Below are positions 26,657-61,323 of a stretch of DNA of 64,000 bases, one piece after another. Made by a program: the position numbers and the translations under genes. Source of the stretch: Alphaproteobacteria bacterium (GTDB taxonomy: Bacteria; Pseudomonadota; Alphaproteobacteria; CAAHEQ01; UBA3637); assembly GCA_045614025.1 (NCBI GenBank), contig JAZLCE010000027.1, positions 63,033-127,032 on the forward strand, written 5' to 3'. Under the pieces are notes generated by a model that was given only the letters and a program-made list of their open reading frames with translations, did no database searches and was not told where the DNA came from. How positions within the stretch are numbered: position 1 is the stretch's first letter; every line of letters starts with the position of its first letter.

Positions 26657-28534
26657 CTAAAAACCTCCTCCGCCACCTCCGCCGGCACCACCACCGGCAC
26701 CACCACCAGAACCACCGCCGCCTGATCCTCCCGATGAAGAACTATGCGAAGTTGAGGCACTATGCAAACAGGAGCTAACACTTGAAAAAACAGACGCATC
26801 TGAAAAAACATCGTCATCCGGCGGTATAAAATTAAAGTATGTTTCCATTTTTTCACACCACTGATTTTGTAACCCAAGCAAAATGGCATAAGGCAATAAC
26901 TTTTCCATTTCAACTTGCTCAGGTGTTTTATCTTTTAAATCATCAGTTCCTTTTAAGAACATTTCTATTCCTTCTAAATGCTCTATCAAATCCAAACCTT
27001 TATCATAAACGCGAACAATAATGTATTTATAAAAAGCAACAATACAAGAAAATAAAAAGACAAAACACCATACTTTATAATCTGCCATACTTGTTATAAG
27101 CTCATCAACCTCTTTTAATAATAAATCAGAAAGCTCATATATAGCATGTAAAAACAAGAAACTAAAACAAGATAAAAAAACCGTCAATATGATCACACCA
27201 ACTGCAATTATAATCCAATTTTTACCTCTTGTAAAAACACTTAAAACAACATTTGAAAACCCAAGCGTTACACCACCCAAGATAAGAGAAACAAATAAAA
27301 ACGAAAAATCATTAAAATATAACATGAAAAAACAAAAACAAAAAACAAACATTAAAAATTTAAACATCAAAAGACATTTTGTGTTATATTTAAATAATAC
27401 AGATGTCTGTTTTTCAGAATATTGTTTATACTCTTCAACATACTTTACAAACGAAGAACTATATACCCCCTTTTTAAGCGAATACTTGTTTTTTGCCCTT
27501 TCAATAAAAAACTTTTCATCTGAATTGCTTGGCTTTATCTTCATATTTTTTTCAAGAGTTATTCCTTTTTTATCGGTTTTTATTTTTAACAATCCTTTTT
27601 GTGAAAGATATGCTAAATGAGGCATGATTAAATCACAAGAATCAATACCTAAACATTGATAATTCTTAAGAAAAAATAAAGCGCCCAATTTATTAAATTT
27701 AGGGATATCAAATCTTGGATAGGCAGGCCTTCTTATACCGTCTTCTCCATGTTTTTTCCATGAAAAATAAGCATAATATGCCACCCAATAGAACACAAAA
27801 AGTATAACTATTATAAATAAAATATTTACATACTTATTAAAAGGAATGCCTGGCTCTTGTATTTTAAAAAAACCTGAGTCAAAATCCACGTTCAAACTCA
27901 AAGCTTCTCGTTTTTTTAATCCATTTGGTAAATGAATTAAAATTTGATTATCTTGTTTTAAAAAGGGAGTGTCTTGATTTTTTGAACCATATTTCCCGAA
28001 AAATACTTTTGGTTCTTCTGCCAATGTGACACCAGAAGGCAAGCGAACAATGGCTGCAACGTCCAAAATATTAAACATCCATTCATTGCAAATCAAATTA
28101 TAATAAAACACATCCTGTATTTTCTCTTCATTATACCTTACAATATTTTGATGTTTATATGTTATTTTATATTCATAAATCCCCGGATAAATATATCGAT
28201 TCATATCCCCCAAATAAACACGTTTTTGATTATCTCCCCTTTTGGTGGTATAGGGAATATCTTTCCCATTTCTTGTTACAGATATAATTGAAACAGGAGT
28301 TTTTTCGCCCGCATAACGTGTTGGTAAATCCCTATAAATACCTCTTTTAATATCCTTACCTTGCGCTCTTACTTTAATTGTTTCGTGCACAAGCAAAGAC
28401 GAATCTTGATTTAATTCAGCATAAATATGATAAGATAAAATTTCTTCTTTTTGCACACTAGCATTTGCTATTAAATTGCAAAAAAAACAACCAAATAAAA
28501 AAACAAAAAGAAATAACGCTTTTTTAATCTTCAT
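26657..28534 (-). CDS. DUF2207-family membrane protein with a C-terminal poly-Gly/Ser tail
   Basis: Signal peptide, a central block of TM helices, and the tail SSSSGGSGGGGSGGGAGGGAGGGGGGGF. Its start overlaps the lemA stop (ATGA), the conserved LemA-DUF2207 pair. Confidence 0.65.
   Translation of the reverse strand: MKIKKALFLFVFLFGCFFCNLIANASVQKEEILSYHIYAELNQDSSLLVHETIKVRAQGKDIKRGIYRDLPTRYAGEKTPVSIISVTRNGKDIPYTTKRGDNQKRVYLGDMNRYIYPGIYEYKITYKHQNIVRYNEEKIQDVFYYNLICNEWMFNILDVAAIVRLPSGVTLAEEPKVFFGKYGSKNQDTPFLKQDNQILIHLPNGLKKREALSLNVDFDSGFFKIQEPGIPFNKYVNILFIIVILFVFYWVAYYAYFSWKKHGEDGIRRPAYPRFDIPKFNKLGALFFLKNYQCLGIDSCDLIMPHLAYLSQKGLLKIKTDKKGITLEKNMKIKPSNSDEKFFIERAKNKYSLKKGVYSSSFVKYVEEYKQYSEKQTSVLFKYNTKCLLMFKFLMFVFCFCFFMLYFNDFSFLFVSLILGGVTLGFSNVVLSVFTRGKNWIIIAVGVIILTVFLSCFSFLFLHAIYELSDLLLKEVDELITSMADYKVWCFVFLFSCIVAFYKYIIVRVYDKGLDLIEHLEGIEMFLKGTDDLKDKTPEQVEMEKLLPYAILLGLQNQWCEKMETYFNFIPPDDDVFSDASVFSSVSSCLHSASTSHSSSSGGSGGGGSGGGAGGGAGGGGGGGF
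26684..26707. repeat. Tandem 2 x 12-nt direct repeat (GGCACCACCACC) inside a GC-rich tract that encodes the poly-Gly tail
   Basis: Read directly at 26684-26695 and 26696-26707. An in-frame unit inside the CCACC-rich stretch 26665-26730. Confidence 0.8.
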
Positions 28535-29073
28535 AAAAAATCCTTCACATTTGGCACAACTTTTTCATGAGAGCCCTCTAATTGGAAAAAAGATTTATCG
28601 GAAAGCTTAAAGGTTTTTTTTAATAAGCAAATCGGAAATAAATTGATAAAGGAGTTAAATTTTCTTACCACCCCATTATAATAACGACGAGCATGTTGCA
28701 AATCATCCTCAATTAAAGACAATTCTTTTTGTATTTTTAAAAACGCTTCATCTGCTTTTAAATTTGGATAATCCTCTTTTAATCCCAAAATCAAACACAA
28801 TCCTTGCTCAAATTGATTTTCCAAATTTTCTTTTTTTTGCAATATTTTTTGATTCATTGTTTGATTTCTAAGACGAACAACTTCTTCAACAGTTTTCGAT
28901 TCATGTGTGCAATATGCCGAAACTGTTTTCACAAGATTAGGAACCAAATCATACCGGCGTTTCAATTGCACATCAACTCCGCTTTCGGCTTCAAGAATCA
29001 AATTTTTAAGATGGATGGTTTTATTATAGATAAAAATTAATCCAAGTATAAAAGCTAAAATAAAAATAAACAT
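28531..29073 (-). CDS. lemA: LemA-family membrane protein
   Basis: N-terminal TM (MFIFILAFILGLIF) then a helical LemA domain. Start trimmed to the ATG at 29073, which has an AGGGAG RBS. Confidence 0.78.
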   Translation of the reverse strand: MFIFILAFILGLIFIYNKTIHLKNLILEAESGVDVQLKRRYDLVPNLVKTVSAYCTHESKTVEEVVRLRNQTMNQKILQKKENLENQFEQGLCLILGLKEDYPNLKADEAFLKIQKELSLIEDDLQHARRYYNGVVRKFNSFINLFPICLLKKTFKLSDKSFFQLEGSHEKVVPNVKDFL

Positions 29074-42633: not shown

Positions 42634-43884
42634 ATGCTATTTTCAAAAAAACCACCTATGCCAACAAACTTTAAATTAGGGACTCAGGAAAAAACCTTAA
42701 ATCAACCTTTTGAAAATGAACCTAAAATTCAACAACCAAAACCGTCTTTTCAAATGCCTGAACCTCCTGCATTTAAAGAGCCAATGTTTATGCCTCAAGC
42801 ACCTAAATTTTCTCAAGATAATTCATCTTCTCAATCTTTTACCCCCCCCATTGAAACAACGGTTATTAAAGAAGAAACAACCCCTCACGAAGAAATAAAT
42901 GAAAATGGGCAAAAAGTTTTTAAAGCAAAATCCATTAAAGATGTTGATTTTTCAGACATTTGGTTCACGCCTGAAAAAATTGCTTATATCCGAGATAAAA
43001 ACACAAAATTTGCCCTCATTCCATTTGAAACAGAAGATTTAGATGATTTCTTAAAAATTTTGGAACAAGGGTATCAAGGATCCGCAAGCTATGCCATTCG
43101 TTTTTTAAATGAAGCATATCGTGTTGAACGCGTTATCACTTCAACAGGAACTCAATATAATTGCCGTAAAATGCCGGCCACAACACCAAGTATCTATAAA
43201 TTAGGATTACCTGAGCCAATTGTAAAATATATGACTTCTTTAGCAACCGAATCAGGTCTTATTTTACTTGCAGGACCAACTGGTATGGGGAAAACAACAA
43301 CAGTTTCAGCTTTAGTTAAAGAGTTTTTGGAAACACATGGTGGCTTTTTATACACCATTGAAGATCCACCTGAAATGCCTCTTGATGGTCTTTATCATGC
43401 AAGAAATGGAGGCCTAGGGTTATGCAAACAAAGCTCTGTTGAAAATGAAAGATGGGGAGATGCATTAAAATCAGCTCTACGTTCACGTCCAAGATATATC
43501 CTTGTTGGGGAAATCAGAACGCCTGAAGTTGCCTCTCAAGCTTTACGGGCCGCTACATCTGGTCACCTTGTTCTTTCAACCATTCATGCCAATAGTGTTG
43601 AAGATGCATTAAATTCCGTTATTAAATATGCTTCTGGCGCCGGGTTGGATGAAAAACTTGTTTGTGACTTATTAGCACGCGGGATTTTAGGTGTTGTACA
43701 TCAACAATTAGAAGGAACAACAAATTTAAGACCCATTATTCATACAGCATTTGCAAATCCAAATCCTTTAGTTGCTTGCCAAATGCGAATGACTATCAGA
43801 GAAGGAAAAATCTCACTCGCTACATTTATGGAAGCCCAAAATACAAGAATATTTCAAGGGCGACCAATGTTTAGAGAACTATAA
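42634..43884 (+). CDS. PilT/VirB11-class secretion ATPase (orphan) with a proline-rich N-terminal extension
   Basis: Walker A GPTGMGKTT, Asp box EDPPE, Walker B RYILVGEIRTPE, His box GHLVLSTIHA. The first ~90 aa are Pro/Gln-rich and low complexity. Confidence 0.75.
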   Translation: MLFSKKPPMPTNFKLGTQEKTLNQPFENEPKIQQPKPSFQMPEPPAFKEPMFMPQAPKFSQDNSSSQSFTPPIETTVIKEETTPHEEINENGQKVFKAKSIKDVDFSDIWFTPEKIAYIRDKNTKFALIPFETEDLDDFLKILEQGYQGSASYAIRFLNEAYRVERVITSTGTQYNCRKMPATTPSIYKLGLPEPIVKYMTSLATESGLILLAGPTGMGKTTTVSALVKEFLETHGGFLYTIEDPPEMPLDGLYHARNGGLGLCKQSSVENERWGDALKSALRSRPRYILVGEIRTPEVASQALRAATSGHLVLSTIHANSVEDALNSVIKYASGAGLDEKLVCDLLARGILGVVHQQLEGTTNLRPIIHTAFANPNPLVACQMRMTIREGKISLATFMEAQNTRIFQGRPMFREL

Positions 43885-48348: not shown

Positions 48349-49623
48349 ATGCTTGATATAAAATTCATCAGAGAAAATGCTGATTTAGTTAAAAAAACAT
48401 TGCAAGAAAAATGCTTAACGCTTGATATTGACGAATTGCTTTCAATTGATAAGCAAATCATTCAAATTAAGCAATTGATGGAAGCAGAACTTCAAAAAAG
48501 AAATGCTTTAAGCAAAGAAATGCCAAAAGCAAGCCCTGAAAGAAAAGAAGAAATCAAAGCTCTTTCAAAACAATCTGGGCAACAAGCCGCCGCTTATGCT
48601 GAAGAATTAAAACCACTGGAAGAAAAATTCAAAACCATGATGGGGATGACACCAACCATTCCAGCTCCAGATGTTCCTCGTGGCGAAAGTGAAGAAGAAA
48701 ACGTTGTTGTTCGCACAGTTGGTGAAAAACCTGTTTTTGATTTTGAAATGAAAGATCATGTTGCTTTAATGGATTTAAACGATTGGGGTGAATTCAAAAA
48801 AATCTCTCAAATTTGTGGCAGCCGAACAGTTGGCATTAAAGGCGAATTATTGCAACTTGAAATGGCCTTGTGGCAATATACGGTTAATAAATTAATCGAA
48901 AAAGGTTTCCAAGTAATGAGTGTTCCATCACTTTCATTTGAAAATGCTTTTTATCACACAGGGCACTTCCCATTTGATTATGAATCAGTTTATTCTATGC
49001 CAAAAGATAACCTCTTTTTAGCGGGAACAGCTGAAGTGATTTTAAACAGCATTCATGCCGGCGATATTTTAAAAGAATCTGATTTGCCAATCATGTATGC
49101 TGGATTTTCTCCATGTTTCAGAAGAGAAGCTGGCGCTGCTGGTAAAGATACGCGTGGCCTTATTCGCGTTCACCAATTCAGCAAAGTTGAACAATATATC
49201 ATTTGTAAAGCAGATGTTGCAGAATCAGATAAAATGCATCAATTCATTCTTCAAAATGCAGAAGAAGTTATGCAAGATATGGAAATTCCTTATCAAATTA
49301 TTGCAAACTGCACGGGCGACATGGGCGCAGGGAAATATCGCATGAATGATATTGAAGCTTGGTGCCCTGGTCAAGATAAATATCGCGAAACACACAGCTG
49401 TTCTTCATTATTAGATTGGCAAGCACGACGCACAAATATTCGCTATCGTGAAGATGAAACAGGCAAAGTTAAATATGCATATACATTGAATAACACTGGC
49501 CTTGCAACACCTCGTGTTTTGGTTGCCTTTATTGAAAATCATCAACAAGCAGATGGCTCTGTTAAAATTCCAACTGCCTTACAACCATATATGGGTGGCA
49601 AAACAAAAATTGGCGGAAAATAA
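48349..49623 (+). CDS. serS: Seryl-tRNA synthetase
   Basis: 424 aa. N-terminal coiled coil and class II motifs (FRREAGAAGKDTRGLIRVHQF, TGLATPR). Confidence 0.93.
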   Translation: MLDIKFIRENADLVKKTLQEKCLTLDIDELLSIDKQIIQIKQLMEAELQKRNALSKEMPKASPERKEEIKALSKQSGQQAAAYAEELKPLEEKFKTMMGMTPTIPAPDVPRGESEEENVVVRTVGEKPVFDFEMKDHVALMDLNDWGEFKKISQICGSRTVGIKGELLQLEMALWQYTVNKLIEKGFQVMSVPSLSFENAFYHTGHFPFDYESVYSMPKDNLFLAGTAEVILNSIHAGDILKESDLPIMYAGFSPCFRREAGAAGKDTRGLIRVHQFSKVEQYIICKADVAESDKMHQFILQNAEEVMQDMEIPYQIIANCTGDMGAGKYRMNDIEAWCPGQDKYRETHSCSSLLDWQARRTNIRYREDETGKVKYAYTLNNTGLATPRVLVAFIENHQQADGSVKIPTALQPYMGGKTKIGGK

Positions 49624-49644
49624 TCCGTTTAACTTAAAAAGAAA

Positions 49645-49680
49645 AACCCATCTGTTTTCAGATGGGTTTTCTTTTGGTTT
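49645..49680. terminator. Bidirectional terminator between serS and the convergent CC-repeat operon
   Basis: 10-bp stem AACCCATCTG/CAGATGGGTT with loop TTTT, and T-runs on both strands. Confidence 0.6.
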
Positions 49681-49738: not shown

Positions 49739-51208
49739 TTATCGTCCACCTAACGGACCAGCATATCCCTTATCTCCTTCTTCTGGTAGGCCATCAGCAA
49801 CACAAGCACCATTAATTTTTTTGCCCCATGTGATGCAACAAAATGAATTATACATCCATTTACCACCAGCATTTTCGCAACAAGCTGCTGTTCTTGAACC
49901 AGTCATAATATCCATTGATCCTCTACAGCAAGAAGCGCTCGATTCTTCTTGATCTGGATCGCCAGGAGCACTACTGCTACTAGTAACCCATTCACCATAT
50001 GCATGTTCGCAACAAGCTTGAGTTGGTTTACCCTTTATATTTCTCGGAGAAGTTGGGTCTTCGCAACATTCCCCTTCACCACCATTACCGCCATCTGCAT
50101 AATTAGAGCTTGGGCAACAACCATAATAATCTCCATCAGGATACTCTTTATCATCACTGTTTTGACAGCAAGCCCCACCTATAGCAAACTTTCCAGTTTC
50201 ACAACAATCCGTATCGCCATAATTGCCGTTTTGTGGATTCACAAATTTTTTAATATAAACATTACCCTTACAACAAGCCCCTGATTTTAATTCAGAACCA
50301 TCGTCCAGCGTTACTTTTTTCACATAACCATCTTCATCTGATGCACAACAAGCATCAATATCTCCGAGATCTGATACTACTTTAGGGCTTTTACAGCAAT
50401 CTTCTATCACATCTGTTTCACTTGAATCATTATAGGCGCGCCCATAAACAGTTCCTCCTATACAACAACCAAGATCGGCCACCCCTGAATCAAAAGCTTT
50501 GTTATAGGCGTTTCCTCCATCCCCTACGCAACAATTAGAGGTTACTTTTGCGCCTGAATAAGTGATTACAACTTTACCATCTAGAGTCATCGATTGATAC
50601 ATTTGATTTGCCATTGCCGTGCCATCTTTTTCGGTTGCACAGCAATCGCCATTTTCCCATTTACCCTCTGCCGCCTTGCAACATTCCTTTGAATGGGCTT
50701 TTTTATCAAAATCATAAGCTTGAAAGCAACAGCGGTCTGAGTGTTCTTCCCCACCTTGCGCCCGGCAACATCTGGCATTATTCGACCCAGTTGACCAATA
50801 TTTCCAACTATCTGCAATGCAACAAATTCCACCGTTTCCTGGCATATTTTGAGTATCTGCAGCTCCTTCTAATGGCCAAAAGACATAGTTCCCAGGATCC
50901 TTTCCTTTTGCTATTTGACTTGTGCAACAATCTTCTGTTACAACTCCACCGCGAATTGGAATACCCTCTGGAGATAAAGCATATGCCGCGGTAACATTAT
51001 TGATTGAACAACAAGTGCCTCCACGCCATTCAAAGTTTTCTTCATTTCCCCAACCACCTTTGCAACAATCTTCAGAGGTTGAAATTTTAGACATGTAACA
51101 ACAATTTGGATTTAATACGGCTCCACCTCCACCTGACTGAGACATTACTTCGGTTGAAATCACCAAGGCGCCACTCAAAGATAAAATCATTCCCCATTTT
51201 TTCATCAT
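49739..51208 (-). CDS. Secreted vicinal-cysteine (CC-doublet) repeat protein B. Novel; no family recognised.
   Basis: Start trimmed to the ATG at 51208 (MMKKWGMILSLSGALVISTEVMS signal peptide, preceded by a G8 RBS-like tract). The mature ~465 aa contain about 22 Cys-Cys doublets spaced 8-35 residues apart and one single Cys. Gly/Asp/Asn-rich. Confidence 0.7.
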   Translation of the reverse strand: MMKKWGMILSLSGALVISTEVMSQSGGGGAVLNPNCCYMSKISTSEDCCKGGWGNEENFEWRGGTCCSINNVTAAYALSPEGIPIRGGVVTEDCCTSQIAKGKDPGNYVFWPLEGAADTQNMPGNGGICCIADSWKYWSTGSNNARCCRAQGGEEHSDRCCFQAYDFDKKAHSKECCKAAEGKWENGDCCATEKDGTAMANQMYQSMTLDGKVVITYSGAKVTSNCCVGDGGNAYNKAFDSGVADLGCCIGGTVYGRAYNDSSETDVIEDCCKSPKVVSDLGDIDACCASDEDGYVKKVTLDDGSELKSGACCKGNVYIKKFVNPQNGNYGDTDCCETGKFAIGGACCQNSDDKEYPDGDYYGCCPSSNYADGGNGGEGECCEDPTSPRNIKGKPTQACCEHAYGEWVTSSSSAPGDPDQEESSASCCRGSMDIMTGSRTAACCENAGGKWMYNSFCCITWGKKINGACVADGLPEEGDKGYAGPLGGR

Positions 51209-51214
51209 TTTTAT

Positions 51215-51222
51215 CCCCCCCC
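51215..51222 (-). repeat. Homopolymeric G8 tract (C8 on + strand) in the ribosome-binding spacer of CC-repeat gene B
   Basis: Read directly. It lies 6 nt upstream of the ATG at 51208 and 2 nt downstream of the stop of the preceding gene. Unusual in this AT-rich genome. Confidence 0.85.
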
Positions 51223-51224
51223 TT

Positions 51225-52484
51225 TTAATTGCGCTCTCTGGATGCGCTTTGATTCCGGCGTGTATTTCGCGCATTTCTTGAACTTGTTGTTCTTGTTCTA
51301 GATGAAGATCGGGATGATGCTCTGGAAGAGGATCTTGAAGAAGACCTGCCATCATATAATCCCCTAATAGGAACAACATCATAAACATGGTTCACCCCTT
51401 CTTCAATCTCATACGTATTAAAAGAGTTTACAACATATGTGTGCTTTACCAATTCTTCAACATACCGATTTGCTTTTTGATAGGTAAGGCAAAGCGCTCT
51501 GGTTAAGGGGGTTTTATTCATTGAAAGTGAGCGAACATTTCCACCTTTTTGTTGAATAATTTGTTCTAGCCCATCCATCATTTCCCTTAAAGCGGCTGGA
51601 GCATTCAATAATTGAGCTGCGCGAGCTGATAAGGATGGATTAATATCCTCTGGACTTGGTTGATTAAAAAAGGTGAGACTTATTGTACGATTATTGGCAA
51701 AAGATGTCGTAACAATTCCTTTACCTCCACAATCAGAACCAATGCCTAAAATTCCTGTTTCTAATAAACCTTCATAAGAATAAAGTGGATGCCCCAAAGT
51801 GCGATAAAGCGAAGCTTGTTGCTCTGTATAATTGGATAAATCCAATGCATCCGTATGTTGTCCAAAAAGAATCCATTTTGTTGGTATAAATTTACCCATT
51901 AATTGAGCTGGGTCCACCTCAGGATCGCGCCCCAAATCAACCAATTGCATGCCATAAAAATAATGAAAGTTTTCATTTAAAATAGCAAGAACATCTTTTA
52001 AAAATTCTTGATCAGGTTCATCCATCACTTTATTTCCGCGGTTCACTGCTCTTAATTCAGAAGCCGATAATTCAATCCATGGCCGATCCGTTTGCGGGTT
52101 AATGGCGGGTTCTTTTCGATATTCCCATGCTTGATCATCCCCAAAAAAGCGCGTGCGATATAAAAAGATATGCCCCCCTTTTTCATAAAGACCAATGCCA
52201 TCTTCATCATTCACATAAAGCAAGCTTTCGCCTGACATCAAATATCGATAATTGTTTCTATTTTGCTCTATCCATTCTTTAAAAACAGGATGAAGGGTGG
52301 CATAGTTATCGGCTTCTCGATAAAGCCTATAAATCGAAGTAGGGTTTTTGCGTTTGGATCCAAACCTTCCACTTGAAACGCGTTCACTTGGCGTATATTC
52401 GCAAGCAAGCAAATCCCTTGATTCCAAGGTGGAAGCGCAAACGCCCCACATAACCGATAATAACAATAAGTCTTTATATCTCAT
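51225..52484 (-). CDS. Secreted protein with a C-terminal Arg/Ser-rich (RS-repeat) tail. Unknown function.
   Basis: Signal peptide MRYKDLLLLSVMWGVCAST. The last ~40 aa read GRSSSRSSSRASSRSSSRTRTTSSRNARNTRRNQSASRERN. No recognised catalytic motifs. Confidence 0.65.
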   Translation of the reverse strand: MRYKDLLLLSVMWGVCASTLESRDLLACEYTPSERVSSGRFGSKRKNPTSIYRLYREADNYATLHPVFKEWIEQNRNNYRYLMSGESLLYVNDEDGIGLYEKGGHIFLYRTRFFGDDQAWEYRKEPAINPQTDRPWIELSASELRAVNRGNKVMDEPDQEFLKDVLAILNENFHYFYGMQLVDLGRDPEVDPAQLMGKFIPTKWILFGQHTDALDLSNYTEQQASLYRTLGHPLYSYEGLLETGILGIGSDCGGKGIVTTSFANNRTISLTFFNQPSPEDINPSLSARAAQLLNAPAALREMMDGLEQIIQQKGGNVRSLSMNKTPLTRALCLTYQKANRYVEELVKHTYVVNSFNTYEIEEGVNHVYDVVPIRGLYDGRSSSRSSSRASSRSSSRTRTTSSRNARNTRRNQSASRERN

Positions 52485-52517
52485 TTATCCTCACTTTCAC
52501 TTTGCTTTTTTAAGCAA

Positions 52518-55337
52518 TTATCCATTCCCCCCAACAACGCCTTCTTCAGGACAGGAGCCAACATATGTGCCATAACCATTTTCAACACCTGGAGGACAAT
52601 CATATGTTCTTAGCGTTTTTCTTCGCTCAACTTCAACAATGCCACCAGGTTTTGAGCTTCCAGGAATATGCGTATATTTAAAGCATTCTTTTGCTGGCTT
52701 ATTTTTCAAACCTCTGGGTATGAAGCAATCATCCCCATAAGCAAGCCCACTTGGATTACTTGGACAACAAGCACAAGATATTGTTCCATTAGCCAAAACA
52801 CCTTCCTCTTGACAGCAATTTCCATTAATCTCTTTACATACTGTGGTATCACATTCCATTTCTTGCGTGTCTGGAATCACTTCTTCTTCTGTCTTAATTG
52901 TATCTATATACGTGCAATAATCATAGCATTTATCTGGGTTTGGTTGGGGCCCCTCTGTGCACTTTTTACAACTTGTGCATTTTGAACCATCCCAATATAT
53001 GCCTTTTCCACCAGCTTGCATGGATGCATAATCACAACAAATTTTACTTTCCGTTCCATCAATAGCTTGCCCCGTTTTTAAATCACAACACATACTTTCA
53101 GTTGTGTTATATGAGATACCCGTTGGATAACAAGTTGTTCCAGAGGTCCCAGTTGGGCACTGACCCGCCTGAGCATACCCTTGAATCGTTGTTCCCACCA
53201 AAACAAACGTTCCTTTGGAGCGAATAAGTGGATTTGTTGTATTATAATAAAGAGGAGATTCGCAACATTCTTTATAATTATTTTTCACATCACCTTCTGT
53301 TGCGCTCATAGAAGTACCCTCTAATGTTTGGCAACAATATTCTGGCGAAGGCATCCCGCTCCAATCTCTAATCTTTTGATCATAAGTTAACGCAGTTCCA
53401 GAACGTTCAAGCTCTTTATAATCCACACAACAGTTGCGATCTGGCTCTGGAACACTGGTAGGCGCAGTCGCAATAATTCCACATTCTTGTGAAATATTTT
53501 GTCCAACTTGATAATGTGGGCCATGAACATAAGAAAGTTTTCGTCCATTCATATCCGTTGCCACATTACAGCATTCTTGAGAATATTTAAGCACACCACC
53601 TTCATAAGCACAAGCAGATGTTTTTAAACGTTTTTGAAGCCCTTCCATTTTATAACAGCAATCTGTTGTTGGCGTTCCCATAATATCCAATGGAGCAGCC
53701 CCTGTAATCGGCGTTCCCAATGTTGGAACATTAGAAACACCTTCCCATGGACATTGCTCAGTTGTTGAAGCCGTGCGAAACGCCAGCACATCATTTTGCG
53801 AACAACAAAGCGCTTTTCCAGTTTCTGATGTAAGATTTGTACCAGCAACTTGGCCATCGGCTTCTGCCCAATATCCTCCTCCTGCAATGCAACACTGATC
53901 GACCGTTACTTCACTTGTTTGAGATGAACTTCCCAATGGACAGTTTTGATATTGGGTGGATGTTGATCCTTTTGATGTAGCAATTGTCCACGGCAATACT
54001 GCCCCCGTGATGGATGAAATGTGACATGGCACGGTAATAGATGTTGTAGGAGGTTCACCCGGGCAACAAGATGCATCCATCTCACCAGCCCAGTTGCCGC
54101 CAATATAAATCTCTTCTTCCGAAGTGATAGCGTCCGTATCAAAAACCCACGTTTCTTCATAAACCGGTATTCCATTTTCATCTACAACTGGTTTACCTGT
54201 GGCATCTGTTTTAGCAGTGATACGAACAGAATAACGCCCATCTGGGCCCACTTTACAACGAGGTGTATTTTCAATATTTTCAACCAGTTTACAACATTTT
54301 GGCCCCCCTGGAATGAAAACAACATCATCACCCAACAATTCACAACATTCTTGCGATTCAATGTGTCCACCACTTTCTTCAGTATATGGCGTACCAGGAA
54401 CACAAGTCATATCCGGTGTTGGCAGTAAATCAATCCCTTGTTTTTGACCGAAATAAAGAACCAATGTTTGAAGTGGAATCATTTTCTTTGATCCATCCTC
54501 ATTTTTTTCACCCGTATCTACCCTTGCCCCATAGGCCATACAAGCCAAACTTTTTTTATTTTCGCAAACAGAACCTGCCCCTGGAGCGGTTTCTGGATTA
54601 TCTTCATCTTCAAGATTTCTGAGATATTTTTGCGCTAAAGAAATATTTCCTTTAGTTGGGTCAATCATGGTGCAAACTTTATCAATTTGTTCTTTTGTTG
54701 CAATGCCTTCTTCCCCACCCCGTTCTGGGTTTGCATATTTATTTTCTTTTGAAATATTCAAAAAGTCTGGCGTAAAAGGATCCATCGGCGATCCACTCTG
54801 ACTTTGAAGCGCAACATATGCATAATCAAAACCTAAATCGCTTTTGTATAATAACTTTTCACATAACGTATAGGAAAGCCCTGTAACACGAACAGTCCAG
54901 TTATTTTCATCTTCAGCACGAACCCAAGCTGGTGCATCAAGCAAGGTATCAAACGATTCATGTTCGCGCACCTCAACCATCTTGGATCTATCGCCACCAA
55001 CAAGCTTGCCCTCTTCGTCAATTAACCCAGCATCAAAGGCCGATTCTTCCGAACGATACCGCACCCTTGAAACAACATCTCTGATTGGAATAATATATGG
55101 AACATAGTCATCAGCAATACCAACTGTTTGAAATCCATAATGAAGAGGAATATCCCATGAACGACCACCTGCAACTAAAACACTAAGCTGATCCAATGTT
55201 TCAGCTTCTTGATATAAACGCATTGCGTAGCCATAACCAACAATTCCACCAATTGATAAAACCCCCGCCAAGGCCAAAACGCCAAGCATTTCAGCCATTG
55301 TTCGTCCGTTCTCCATCCCAATTTTTTCTTTTTGCAT
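52518..55337 (-). CDS. Large membrane-anchored/secreted Cys-rich protein A with CC doublets and a pilin-like N-terminus. Novel.
   Basis: ATG at 55337 with AGGGGA RBS is preferred over the upstream TTG at 55364. N-terminus MQKEKIGMENG/RTMAEMLGVLALAGVLSIGGIVGY has a Gly before a hydrophobic helix and Glu at +5. The ~900-aa Gly/Thr/Ser-rich body has 14 or more CC doublets plus about 30 single Cys. Confidence 0.65.
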   Translation of the reverse strand: MQKEKIGMENGRTMAEMLGVLALAGVLSIGGIVGYGYAMRLYQEAETLDQLSVLVAGGRSWDIPLHYGFQTVGIADDYVPYIIPIRDVVSRVRYRSEESAFDAGLIDEEGKLVGGDRSKMVEVREHESFDTLLDAPAWVRAEDENNWTVRVTGLSYTLCEKLLYKSDLGFDYAYVALQSQSGSPMDPFTPDFLNISKENKYANPERGGEEGIATKEQIDKVCTMIDPTKGNISLAQKYLRNLEDEDNPETAPGAGSVCENKKSLACMAYGARVDTGEKNEDGSKKMIPLQTLVLYFGQKQGIDLLPTPDMTCVPGTPYTEESGGHIESQECCELLGDDVVFIPGGPKCCKLVENIENTPRCKVGPDGRYSVRITAKTDATGKPVVDENGIPVYEETWVFDTDAITSEEEIYIGGNWAGEMDASCCPGEPPTTSITVPCHISSITGAVLPWTIATSKGSTSTQYQNCPLGSSSQTSEVTVDQCCIAGGGYWAEADGQVAGTNLTSETGKALCCSQNDVLAFRTASTTEQCPWEGVSNVPTLGTPITGAAPLDIMGTPTTDCCYKMEGLQKRLKTSACAYEGGVLKYSQECCNVATDMNGRKLSYVHGPHYQVGQNISQECGIIATAPTSVPEPDRNCCVDYKELERSGTALTYDQKIRDWSGMPSPEYCCQTLEGTSMSATEGDVKNNYKECCESPLYYNTTNPLIRSKGTFVLVGTTIQGYAQAGQCPTGTSGTTCYPTGISYNTTESMCCDLKTGQAIDGTESKICCDYASMQAGGKGIYWDGSKCTSCKKCTEGPQPNPDKCYDYCTYIDTIKTEEEVIPDTQEMECDTTVCKEINGNCCQEEGVLANGTISCACCPSNPSGLAYGDDCFIPRGLKNKPAKECFKYTHIPGSSKPGGIVEVERRKTLRTYDCPPGVENGYGTYVGSCPEEGVVGGNG

Positions 55338-55394
55338 CGGACATCCCCTTTTTTCATATGTCAAAAAGAAGGGTTAACAACCCCGTATACTTTC

Positions 55395-59892: not shown

Positions 59893-59925
59893 AAAAAAGC
59901 GCTTTAAAAGCGCTTTTTTTTATTC
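59893..59925. terminator. Bidirectional terminator between convergent genes
   Basis: Stem AAGCGCTTT/AAAGCGCTT flanked by an A-run and a T-run. It abuts the stop of the minus-strand GT11 gene. Confidence 0.6.
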
Positions 59926-61323
59926 GGTAATAAATTGATTCTTTTTTTTGCTCCAATAATGCTTTTCAACTTCAATTACAACAAAATTTGGAGCAAGCAA
60001 ATTTTTAATCCAATCGGTGTCCCAACTCGTATGTTTATCTGGAGTAATTATAATTTTATTTTTATTTCTGCTTAAAAAAGATCCCCACCAAGAAAAGCTT
60101 GAGTTTGCATTGATAAAATGTTTACAATTGCTCATCAGTTGCAAATCTTCATAATCTTTACGTGTCCAGTCAACATAAACATGTGGTGCATCAATTTTTA
60201 TATTTTCTTTTGACCATTTCAAATCATTTGAAAAAATATAAAATACTGGATTTTTTACATTTCTTTTAATATATTCAATAGCTTGAGAATAATAATTTTG
60301 TGTCAACAAAATATATTCAAAATAAATATAGTCACCTCTTCTAACATGAAGGGCCACACTATTTTCTGACTTCATTTTATTCATGATTTCTTTATTTTTA
60401 TCACTTACTTCATTTTTAAAAACAACATTTTCGCGAATATAATCTTCGTATCCAGCAAAGTTCTTCCATGATTGCAAATACCACCCTGTTTCATAGCATG
60501 ATGCATTAGTTGGAAATTCATGATTAAAATAACATTTAGTCAAATTTAAATAGCGCTTAACAAATTCTGGAGCTCTTTTATATTTCAATAATGAGTTATC
60601 TGTTGTTGCCTTTATCGGTGTATCTAAAAAGTTATCAAAATAAGACCATTCTACCCTATAAAGCGTTTTATGATTTCTTTTCGCATAAACCAATCCACTT
60701 AAATATGAAAAAAGCTGGTTACCTAATCCACCAATATTTGGCGAACTTAAAACATAATCATTAATATTCTTAAAACCTTCTTTTTCTAAATAAGGATCTA
60801 AATTATATTTTTCATTTGTTTTCACATACTCAAATTCTTTATTTTTTTTAAAAACTTCTACGCCATGATTTAACCAACCCAAAACAACTTTTTGATTATT
60901 ATCTTCAAGCAAAACCGCACAATCATTTCTGGATTTGCATAACAATTTGGAATCATTAGATTGATACATGATAGCATTCCAATGTGGATGTTTGAAATAT
61001 GACATATCCGCATCTGGTGTTTTGCATTTTATATCTAAAAATCTATTTAATCTTGAAACATCAAAAACTTTTTTTGTTGCATTTTGATCTATTATCTCGT
61101 TTTTAAATAAACATAAATGGGATTGATCAATTTCTTTTATTTTAGATTCCGAAAAAATCTTTTTCAAAAAAACATTTCGCCGTTCTTGATCATTAAAAAT
61201 TGTTTTTTCAAATCCCCAATAAAAATGCTCAGGGAACTGTTCTTCTAAAGAGATGGATTGCTCCTTAACTCCTTTAGAAAAAAACATACACACTATGCTT
61301 AAGAAAATAATAATTATTTTCAA
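59920..61323 (-). CDS. GT11-family alpha-1,2-fucosyltransferase homologue with a ~190-aa N-terminal extension
   Basis: GT11 motifs HVRRGDY, GGLGNQLFSY, SNDLKWSKEN in the C-terminal 280 aa. N-terminal signal peptide or anchor MKIIIIFLSIVCMFFS. Confidence 0.75.
   Translation of the reverse strand: MKIIIIFLSIVCMFFSKGVKEQSISLEEQFPEHFYWGFEKTIFNDQERRNVFLKKIFSESKIKEIDQSHLCLFKNEIIDQNATKKVFDVSRLNRFLDIKCKTPDADMSYFKHPHWNAIMYQSNDSKLLCKSRNDCAVLLEDNNQKVVLGWLNHGVEVFKKNKEFEYVKTNEKYNLDPYLEKEGFKNINDYVLSSPNIGGLGNQLFSYLSGLVYAKRNHKTLYRVEWSYFDNFLDTPIKATTDNSLLKYKRAPEFVKRYLNLTKCYFNHEFPTNASCYETGWYLQSWKNFAGYEDYIRENVVFKNEVSDKNKEIMNKMKSENSVALHVRRGDYIYFEYILLTQNYYSQAIEYIKRNVKNPVFYIFSNDLKWSKENIKIDAPHVYVDWTRKDYEDLQLMSNCKHFINANSSFSWWGSFLSRNKNKIIITPDKHTSWDTDWIKNLLAPNFVVIEVEKHYWSKKKNQFITE

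Follow-up and report, generated by a model that had tools for sequence, protein, structure and literature searches.

A predicted Sec-exported protein with a polycationic, disordered tail in hindgut Alphaproteobacteria and Akkermansia

We examined a stretch of alphaproteobacterial DNA of 64,000 nucleotides (hereafter the window), in which three adjacent genes, namely A, a middle gene (mid) and B, lie on the minus strand. The middle gene is an ATG-to-TAA open reading frame (ORF) of 419 aa at 51225..52484 (-) in the ORF listing of the window, and this ORF is a genuine gene. Its product is predicted to be a Sec-exported protein of about 45 kDa with a signal peptide, a globular body and a tail rich in Ser and Arg. 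On the comparative evidence presented here, the tail is a polycationic disordered tail and not an SR-protein module. The same comparisons show that Akkermansia acquired the gene alone several times, in at least five insertions, once demonstrably from an alphaproteobacterial A-mid-B-serS locus. These descriptive statements on gene, tail, operon and transfer are much firmer than the tethering mechanism that we tentatively propose for the protein.

A basic, disordered tail with conserved charge

The last 41 residues of the middle protein (GRSSSRSSSRASSRSSSRTRTTSSRNARNTRRNQSASRERN) include 15 Ser, 12 Arg, 4 Thr and 4 Asn, and have a net charge of +11 and an isoelectric point of 12. Ser and Arg occupy 27 of these 41 positions against a background of 0.106 (binomial P = 4e-17), and a search of all 24,509 segments of 41 aa within the six-frame ORFs (60 aa or longer) of the 64-kb stretch found no second one of this kind. 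In the AlphaFold 2 (AF2) model, the predicted local distance difference test score (pLDDT) is below 50 over residues 379-419, and the tail falls deep within the disordered field of a charge-hydropathy plot. The first-pass annotation of this DNA, made from the sequence alone, had described a body followed by a basic Ser/Arg/Thr/Asn tail and had proposed a check of its disorder; composition, pLDDT and the charge-hydropathy plot all agree with that description.

In the closest relatives the tail is near-identical (SSRSSSRxSSRSSSRTRxTSSR..RRNQSASRERN) and is read in the same frame to the same TAA in independent assemblies. Its conservation extends to the codon level, with synonymous differences. 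In more distant members of about 420 aa the tail sequence differs, yet it is basic and polar in every case (e.g., ...KNGKGTSSKSKDKTTKRGKTKKSSRKRK, ...KKKVSTQKKKTTTTRRSKDRQR, and ...RERARKDKIRQKEVQRKKALRQKEEK). These tails are Lys/Ser/Thr-rich or Lys/Arg/Glu-rich with a similar charge, and the (SSSR)n pattern is limited to close relatives. Overall, the last 45 residues carry a net charge of +8 to +15 in all homologues of about 420 aa, and many of them keep a terminal RERN, RERD or RKRK. Since the composition varies while the charge stays within this range, the Ser/Arg make-up can be regarded as a clade-specific realisation of a polycationic disordered tail. Selection on the tail is apparently for charge and polarity, with R and K as well as S and T being interchangeable, and not for an RS-dipeptide motif. 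The first-pass annotation had tied its interpretation to the conservation of the tail in orthologues and had suggested a search among related genomes. What is conserved is the basic tail; the RS composition is lost beyond the close relatives. With Ser and Arg in one clade and Lys, Ser and Thr in others, the family offers a natural experiment on selection in disordered tails.

We also considered whether the tail could be an annotation or sequence artefact, that is, a frameshift, a read-through or the chance translation of a low-complexity DNA repeat. Such an origin might be suspected from the G8 homopolymer just after the stop and from the tail DNA being open in the frame of gene B as well, where 60 codons 5' of the B start extend that gene into a spurious ORF of 549 aa. 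Nevertheless, frame, stop and tail recur with synonymous differences in independent assemblies from two phyla, the tails of distant homologues are different yet equally basic, and the ATGATG start of gene B and its Shine-Dalgarno sequence (SD) are conserved. The comparative data have in our view already refuted an artefact, the chance of which is vanishingly small. The concern of the first-pass annotation that the tail might be out of frame is thereby answered, and its observation that the TAA lies 2 nt before the G8 tract is correct, the tract being the intergenic ribosome-binding site of gene B. The upstream opening of the gene B frame lies at 51209-51388 (-), before the real ATGATG, and the spurious ORF overlaps the middle gene.

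Predicted export

The N-terminus of the middle protein has the layout MRYKD-LLLLSVMWGVCA-STLE, with a basic n-region, a hydrophobic core of 12 residues, which averages 2.31 on the Kyte-Doolittle scale, and a V-x-A site. A heuristic check found the pattern of Sec-dependent export and cleavage by signal peptidase I (SPase I), namely a basic n-region, an h-region within 7-15 residues and small residues at -3 and -1. These features are retained in the homologues, and AF2 models the N-terminus of the middle protein as a helix of low pLDDT; they bear out the earlier description of a secreted product of 419 aa with a signal peptide. No twin-arginine motif was found in the N-terminus of the middle protein.

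Two other sorting routes were rejected. A lipoprotein signal (SPase II, lipobox [LVI][ASTVI][GAS]C) does not fit the sequence W-G-V-C, in which Val stands at -1, and the signal-peptide Cys is missing from the P0025 and L007 alleles. A C-terminal sorting signal of the PEP-CTERM, LPXTG or GlyGly-CTERM type does not fit either, as the C-terminus lacks a hydrophobic stretch, the maximal Kyte-Doolittle mean over 15 aa within the last 45 aa being -1.22; the NCBIfam search likewise gave zero sorting-domain matches for the middle protein.

An unannotated family with an apparently new fold

AF2, run on a 26-sequence alignment, modelled the protein with a mean pLDDT of 83 and a predicted template modelling score (pTM) of 0.79. 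A pLDDT of at least 90 was reached by 260 residues, and residues from about 45 to 378 were modelled with high confidence. The body has a net charge of -11. Searches of Pfam and NCBIfam with the three proteins encoded by A, mid and B gave sub-threshold noise only (HTH_45, Sso10a, CoV_nucleocap, and Galaxin_repeat). Sequence searches of the PDB with the single protein and with the family profile returned nothing below E = 0.5, in line with the first-pass description of a body lacking any recognisable motif, and PHROGs and PADLOC gave no match to the middle protein. Foldseek found no match either, with best E values of 1.3 against the PDB and 0.43 against BFVD. Because a model of this confidence has no Foldseek match, the body apparently represents a new alpha/beta fold.

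Conservation is highest in a core at aa 119-200, with 53-95% identity to every homologue compared with 17-65% for aa 241-300. The consensus of this core reads KEPAINPxTxRPW...DVLxILNENFHYFYGM, with near-invariant N170, E171, N172, and H174. Together with C252, these residues are at least 90% conserved even among members that are only about 20% identical overall, which is compatible with a candidate active or binding site. Cys252 may be catalytic or may form a disulfide with Cys28. H174 and C252 constitute a conserved pair in His-then-Cys order and were therefore compared with the dyads of cysteine peptidases and transferases; neither sequence nor Foldseek searches gave a match to the His/Cys-dyad families (clan CD, sortases, and YkuD).

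The family search yielded 49 clusters at 90% identity, none named beyond 'hypothetical'. An exhaustive HMMER scan of 1.84 billion representatives recovered only 32 proteins (50%-identity representatives), and a profile search with alignment A4 over 5.8 billion proteins added no new relatives and no informative name. The family thus searched appears to be small, unannotated and confined to gut metagenomes. When 27 diverse members were scanned with Pfam, the only matches were to fused domains, namely ankyrin repeats (P0057 and P0065) and a thioredoxin-like domain (P0061), all in distant members.

Several distant members also have an ALPGVPGTG linker after the domain in common. Ankyrin-repeat genes with export signals stand beside distant family members in L016 (2129-5088) and L026 (2233-3270). 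In L019 (242-3690), genes for an Rce1/CPBP-like intramembrane protease, a transglutaminase-core protein and a protein of 104 aa with no assigned family are followed downstream by that of the distant homologue P0067.

A polycationic tail and not an SR-protein module

The first-pass annotation had called the tail eukaryote-like, after the SR proteins, and had raised the prospect of nuclear or speckle targeting. The likeness to these splicing factors (SRSF family) consists of a C-terminal, disordered, strongly basic segment rich in Ser and Arg. An RS domain in the sense of Manley and Krainer (2010) is said to be no shorter than 50 aa and to have an RS content above 40%, made up of consecutive RS/SR dipeptides. 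The middle protein instead ends in 41 aa of SSSR-type units, in which there are 9 RS/SR dipeptides (3 RS and 6 SR) and the longest alternating run is 3 residues; (RS)2 or (SR)2 is absent from all 26 homologues. Furthermore, SR proteins have a single RNA recognition motif (RRM) or two of them at the N-terminus, followed by the C-terminal RS domain (PMC3173450), whereas the middle protein has a bacterial Sec signal and no RRM in Pfam (only sub-threshold HTH_45 and CoV_nucleocap), and no RRM was found in 27 family members. Orthologous tails are Lys-rich, and the resemblance is compositional only. Because consecutive RS dipeptides and RRMs are both lacking in every homologue, we read the segment as a polycationic tail; the eukaryote-like interpretation does not hold, the more so as distant homologues do not keep the composition.

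The anticipated nuclear localisation signal (NLS) was not found. Regular expressions for the classical consensus (monopartite K-K/R-x-K/R, or bipartite with a spacing of 10-12) had no match in the last 45 aa of the protein, and the monopartite pattern matched the last 45 aa of only 6 of 26 homologues. The only Pfam model that touches the tail is the Ser/Arg linker of the coronavirus nucleocapsid (PF00937, aa 380-416). Kinship was rejected: with E = 0.14 and 11.7 bits, where the cut-off is 30, the match reflects low complexity and chance. A literature search returned nothing relevant on bacterial RS-repeat effectors.

A host-directed effector would nevertheless be a role in which such a tail mattered, by mimicking an RS domain, an NLS or a cell-penetrating peptide, by being phosphorylated by SRPK/CLK and by targeting nucleus or speckles. 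Besides the richness of the tail in S and R, such a role could draw on the gut association of the bacterial hosts, on the repeated capture of the gene by a mucosa-associated bacterium and on the distant members that are fused to ankyrin repeats or encoded beside ankyrin genes, a hallmark of interaction with eukaryotes. Against it stand the missing RRM, the lack of consecutive RS/SR in any homologue, the length of only 41 aa, the missing classical NLS consensus and the loss of the RS composition beyond close relatives. In addition, the protein has a Sec signal only, the window shows no evident injection system apart from a lone T2SSE-family ATPase, and an intracellular life of the organism is not supported. 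We regard a host effector of this kind as improbable, and the case for eukaryote mimicry as weak, with only composition and the ankyrin associations in its favour. The lesson is that 'RS-rich' in bacteria should not be read as eukaryotic mimicry.

A conserved operon in hindgut Alphaproteobacteria

A scan of one genome per species detected 11 loci, five in metagenome-assembled genomes (MAGs) labelled 'Alphaproteobacteria bacterium' and six in Akkermansia or Akkermansiaceae MAGs. Named sources of the former include sheep and yak rectum, and those of the latter include water-deer and roe-deer rectum and goat caecum. The endosymbiotic lifestyle assumed in the first-pass annotation is not borne out, given that the closest relatives are hindgut MAGs (sheep, yak, and deer) and that the gene has been exchanged with extracellular Akkermansia. 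The window shows synteny with the alphaproteobacterial loci, and its identity to L006 is about 88% across rsmE and the initial part of gene A. Flanking genes in common are those for rsmE, a SpoIIE-type response regulator, serS, UDG, a TPR protein and EF-Tu, and the remainder of the window is ordinary housekeeping sequence.

The order A-mid-B was found in 7 of 7 alphaproteobacterial loci (the window, L001, L005, L006, L011, L013, and L014). Two of these loci are incomplete: L013, at a contig end, lacks all of gene B but its start, and L014 lacks all of gene A but its 3' end. In L011 the cassette lies in a different genomic neighbourhood, and L013 and L014 are two cassette copies within one MAG. 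The genes are separated by gaps of 33 nt (A-mid) and 16 nt (mid-B) that hold SD sites, and no terminator was found between A, mid and B. The short gaps, the lack of an internal terminator and the one strong hairpin after B (Table 1) indicate that A-mid-B is one operon. The GAGGA sequence of the middle gene is kept across the alphaproteobacterial loci, with AT-rich sequence in its place in Akkermansia.

As the first-pass annotation had stated, the middle gene is flanked by two CC-repeat genes with acidic, Cys-rich products. Protein A has 14 conserved CC doublets and a net charge of -51, and its N-terminus (G-RTMAE-MLGVLALAGVLSIGGIVGY; MENG followed by RTMAEMLGVLALAGVLSIGGIVGY) resembles the leader of type IV pilins or pseudopilins: G11, E16 (Glu at +5) and the hydrophobic stretch are invariant in all 11 homologues. 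No N_methyl or TIGR02532 match was obtained for gene A at E <=1, and AF2 predicts a 44-residue helix (14-57) in its N-domain with low confidence (pLDDT of 49). The gene A family comprises 12 clusters only, all in this lineage. Protein B has 8-10% Cys and 11-26 CC doublets across loci. Its length is between 282 and 545 aa in the window, L001, L005, L006, L011, and L014, a variation that suggests that repeats have been gained and lost. It gave a sub-threshold Galaxin_repeat match (E = 0.0018).

The poly-G tract before gene B is G8 in the window and in L008, G6 in L001, and G5 in L005, L006, and L011, and slippage at this tract could tune the translation of gene B. A phase-variation switch inside a coding region was rejected as an explanation of the G8 tract, which is intergenic and serves as the SD of B. 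The cassette has a GC content of 0.39-0.42 versus a window average of 0.34, and its nucleotide identity between loci is 64-80% versus 88% for the flanking serS, indicating faster divergence. In Alphaproteobacteria, the cassette (49739-55364) may thus be an island that is itself mobile or evolves fast.

Table 1 Features of the cassette and of the middle gene in the window
Feature	Position	Strand	Basis or remark
Gene A, 939 aa from ATG (ORF extends to TTG at 55364)	52518..55337	-	Pilin-like N-terminus, then Cys-rich part
SD of the middle gene, GAGGA	52488..52493	-	Sequence; 4-8 nt 5' of ATG, inside the gap after gene A
Predicted signal peptide, aa 1-17, MRYKDLLLLSVMWGVCA, cleavage after V-C-A	52434..52484	-	Heuristic sequence check
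Globular body, aa 18-378, mixed alpha/beta fold	51351..52433	-	AF2
Most conserved core, aa 119-200, KEPAINPQTDRPWIELS...DVLAILNENFHYFYGMQLVDLGRDP	51885..52130	-	Identity by segment, alignments A1 and A4
Cys252 codon (GSDCGG loop)	51729..51731	-	Invariant in 26 closer homologues, at least 90% with distant ones
Disordered polycationic Ser/Arg tail, aa 379-419, ending in conserved ...SxRERN	51228..51350	-	Composition, pLDDT, orthologue conservation
TAA stop of the middle gene	51225..51227	-	Identical stop in orthologues
G8 tract, SD of gene B, 6 nt before ATGATG (51203-51208)	51215..51222	-	G8-ATAAAA-ATGATG
Gene B, 489 aa	49739..51208	-	Sec signal, 9% Cys, 22 CC doublets, net charge -25
Bidirectional intrinsic terminator, perfect 13-bp stem	49642..49671	.	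Hairpin after gene B, common to convergent serS and A-mid-B

Elsewhere in the window, a lone T2SSE-family (PilB/CpaF-like) ATPase gene lies at 42634-43884 (+), about 7 kb from the cassette, and no other pilus or secretion genes were recognised within the window. A family-11 glycosyltransferase gene (alpha-1,2-fucosyltransferase type) at 59920-61287 (-) has a homologue in the syntenic L001 and fits a host-glycan-like fucosylated surface of a gut bacterium. A LemA and DUF2207 pair is encoded at 26657-29073 (-), with nothing but Gly and Ala in the run at the C-terminal end of the DUF2207 protein (...GGAGGGAGGGGGGGF).

Repeated capture of the gene by Akkermansia

In all six Akkermansia or Akkermansiaceae loci the gene is solo, with no Cys-rich neighbour. 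These copies have a GC content of 0.36-0.46 within flanks of 0.53-0.57, with sharp compositional borders, and occupy five unrelated contexts, namely L007 (the same as L003 and L004), L008 (the same as L009 and L022-L024), L010, L012, and L015. No flanking sequence is common to the different Akkermansia insertion sites.

The origin of one insertion can be read from its junction. In L008 (Akkermansia sp. JAGBDZ010000029, 9222-9400), the stop codon is followed by AAGGGGGGGGCTGAA, which contains G8, and then by ATGATGAAAAAATGGGGA, which corresponds to the SD and the first six codons of the alphaproteobacterial gene B. A short internal fragment of gene B comes next. Behind it lies an antisense relic of serS, 102 nt from the 3' end of that gene, which shares 90% identity with L005 and 79% with 49512-49614 of the window. 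An identical junction, with high-GC genes on both sides, is present in three further independent assemblies (L022, L023, and L024), which rules out a chimeric contig. The flanks of this type encode an arginine decarboxylase, L19 and a nucleoside transporter. The gene B start and the serS relic fix the direction of transfer, from Alphaproteobacteria to Akkermansia, out of a mid-B-serS locus resembling that of the window, with subsequent loss of gene B. Among the Akkermansia insertion sites, such a donor relic was found only in the L008 lineage. In the window, the counterparts of the L008 relics are 49512-49614 and 51188-51224.

The close relationship of copies in the two phyla is further illustrated by a single 90%-identity cluster that holds the Alphaproteobacteria MAG protein MBR6730969.1 and the Akkermansia protein MBP3498945.1. 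The synonymous divergence (dS) between L008 and L005 is 0.32, whereas it is 0.72-0.74 between two alphaproteobacterial alleles. Between L008 and L009, two Akkermansia copies at the same locus, the ratio of nonsynonymous to synonymous divergence (dN/dS) is 0.26, so the gene is maintained by purifying selection in Akkermansia. On this comparative evidence, the solo copies show that the gene works as a self-sufficient unit without its CC-repeat partners. The gene was not found by tblastn in 50,697 phage records or 72,556 plasmids, nor among the scanned viral contigs of IMG/VR, and a literature search returned nothing relevant on horizontal gene transfer (HGT) between Akkermansia and Alphaproteobacteria. 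With its serS relic, this insert documents unusually cleanly, and with a direction, how a single gene for a secreted protein has recently passed from one phylum to another.

One further protein, P0028 (MBR5261340.1), is labelled Oscillospiraceae bacterium and lies on a 2.6-kb contig; its mate in the 90% cluster, P0085, lies on a 22.5-kb Akkermansia contig (L010). The label is probably a binning error and not a third phylum.

The solo copies bear directly on the suggestion of the first-pass annotation that the middle protein is an accessory or chaperone of the CC-repeat system. As a dedicated accessory, chaperone or assembly factor, it would use the tail to grip the acidic proteins A and B during export, oxidative folding or pilus incorporation. 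The A-mid-B order argues for such a link, being invariant in the alphaproteobacterial loci even where the cassette is relocated (L011) or duplicated (L013 and L014), and so do the tight operon with coupled starts, the fusion of one distant homologue (P0061) to a thioredoxin-like domain and the complementary charges (+11 for the tail versus -51 for A and -25 for B). By contrast, co-occurrence is not obligate, as the partner-less Akkermansia and Akkermansiaceae loci demonstrate. The L008 lineage has lost gene B while its middle gene is intact at a dN/dS of 0.26, the middle-gene family is wider than the single-lineage family of gene A, and basic tails persist in hosts without partners. The association with the CC-repeat genes is therefore strict in Alphaproteobacteria, but the protein has no such role as its sole one, and we consider a dedicated accessory function rather unlikely.

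Recombination among alleles

We aligned the window gene with L005, L006, L007, and L008 and found a mosaic pattern. Nucleotide identity between the window and L006 is 95% in the signal peptide, 49% in alignment columns 41-80, 96% in columns 161-200, 56% in columns 281-320, and 83-90% in the tail, and codon identity at conserved residues follows the same mosaic pattern. At the protein level, aa 28-118 of the window protein are 75-86% identical to the Akkermansiaceae allele P0025 versus 52-71% to the alphaproteobacterial P0006 and P0008. Its signal peptide and tail, on the other hand, are 89-100% identical to P0006/P0008 versus 30-60% to P0025. As the nearest neighbour differs by segment, even across phyla, recombination among alleles is indicated. 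Recombination and hypervariable segments are typical of exposed proteins under diversifying pressure. Their combination here suggests a surface-exposed protein under such pressure in the mucus or hindgut niche.

Diversification of this kind could also mark an antagonistic factor, either bacteriocin-like or an envelope-active enzyme, whose cationic tail docks on anionic target cells and which is traded and diversified in an arms race. The gene evolves fast (dN/dS of 0.25-0.33) and is a mosaic in which conserved segments alternate with hypervariable ones. It crosses phyla as a single gene and encodes a conserved His/Cys pair, and one distant homologue is encoded beside a CPBP/Rce1-like protease and a transglutaminase-core protein. 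However, no locus has an adjacent immunity gene, the protein is not similar to known toxin, bacteriocin, phage or defence families, and the gene was not found in the plasmid, phage and viral-contig collections. An antagonistic role thus seems to us a long shot.

Possible roles

We tentatively favour, at somewhat less than even odds, an exported protein whose enzymatic or ligand-binding body is tethered electrostatically to polyanions by the tail. In such a mechanism the body would act as an enzyme or a ligand-binding domain in the envelope or outside the cell, and the tail would serve as an electrostatic tether that holds it on polyanionic surfaces. Candidate polyanions are the cell's own lipopolysaccharide (LPS) or outer membrane, sulfated and sialylated mucin, and extracellular DNA. 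In Alphaproteobacteria, the acidic Cys-rich proteins A and B would be further candidate targets of the tail. The repeated capture of the gene by a mucin specialist suggests a benefit tied to the mucus or hindgut niche.

A related but doubtful possibility is that the protein is a new-fold extracellular enzyme or adhesin, traded as a single-gene module, that serves mucus adaptation or acts on the host; its tail would bind mucin or host surfaces and could mediate uptake. The ankyrin-fused relatives point to a direct engagement of eukaryotic proteins.

Should the proposed tethering role hold, this would be a family of uncharacterised exported proteins with a novel structure that is specific to the hindgut of mammals. 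Akkermansia is a health-relevant mucin specialist, and its repeated captures came from an uncultured alphaproteobacterial lineage. The directional, recurrent transfer into Akkermansia and the unannotated fold are the points worth pursuing.

Comparison with known systems

Bacterial surface and secreted proteins with polycationic low-complexity regions bind heparin, glycosaminoglycans, LPS and teichoic acids, an example being the Arg-rich region of Neisseria NHBA. The middle protein shares with such anchors a predicted exported location, a short disordered basic segment and the conservation of composition over sequence, and by analogy a role as tether is plausible. It differs in having no sequence relationship to them and in a tail that is strictly C-terminal and Ser-rich. 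By this analogy, the basic low-complexity anchors of bacterial surface proteins would be its closest functional counterparts.

The accessory genes of type IV pilus and type II secretion (T2S) pseudopilin operons offer a second comparison, given that the middle gene lies directly downstream of a pilin-like G/xxxxE gene and that the T2SSE-family ATPase gene is only about 7 kb away. Nevertheless, the middle protein has no similarity to known pilus-assembly, chaperone or minor-pilin families, and its gene is maintained without a pilin-like neighbour in Akkermansia. Its general kind, an exported protein with a cationic disordered tail, is therefore familiar, whereas the family to which it belongs is uncharacterised and possibly has a new fold.

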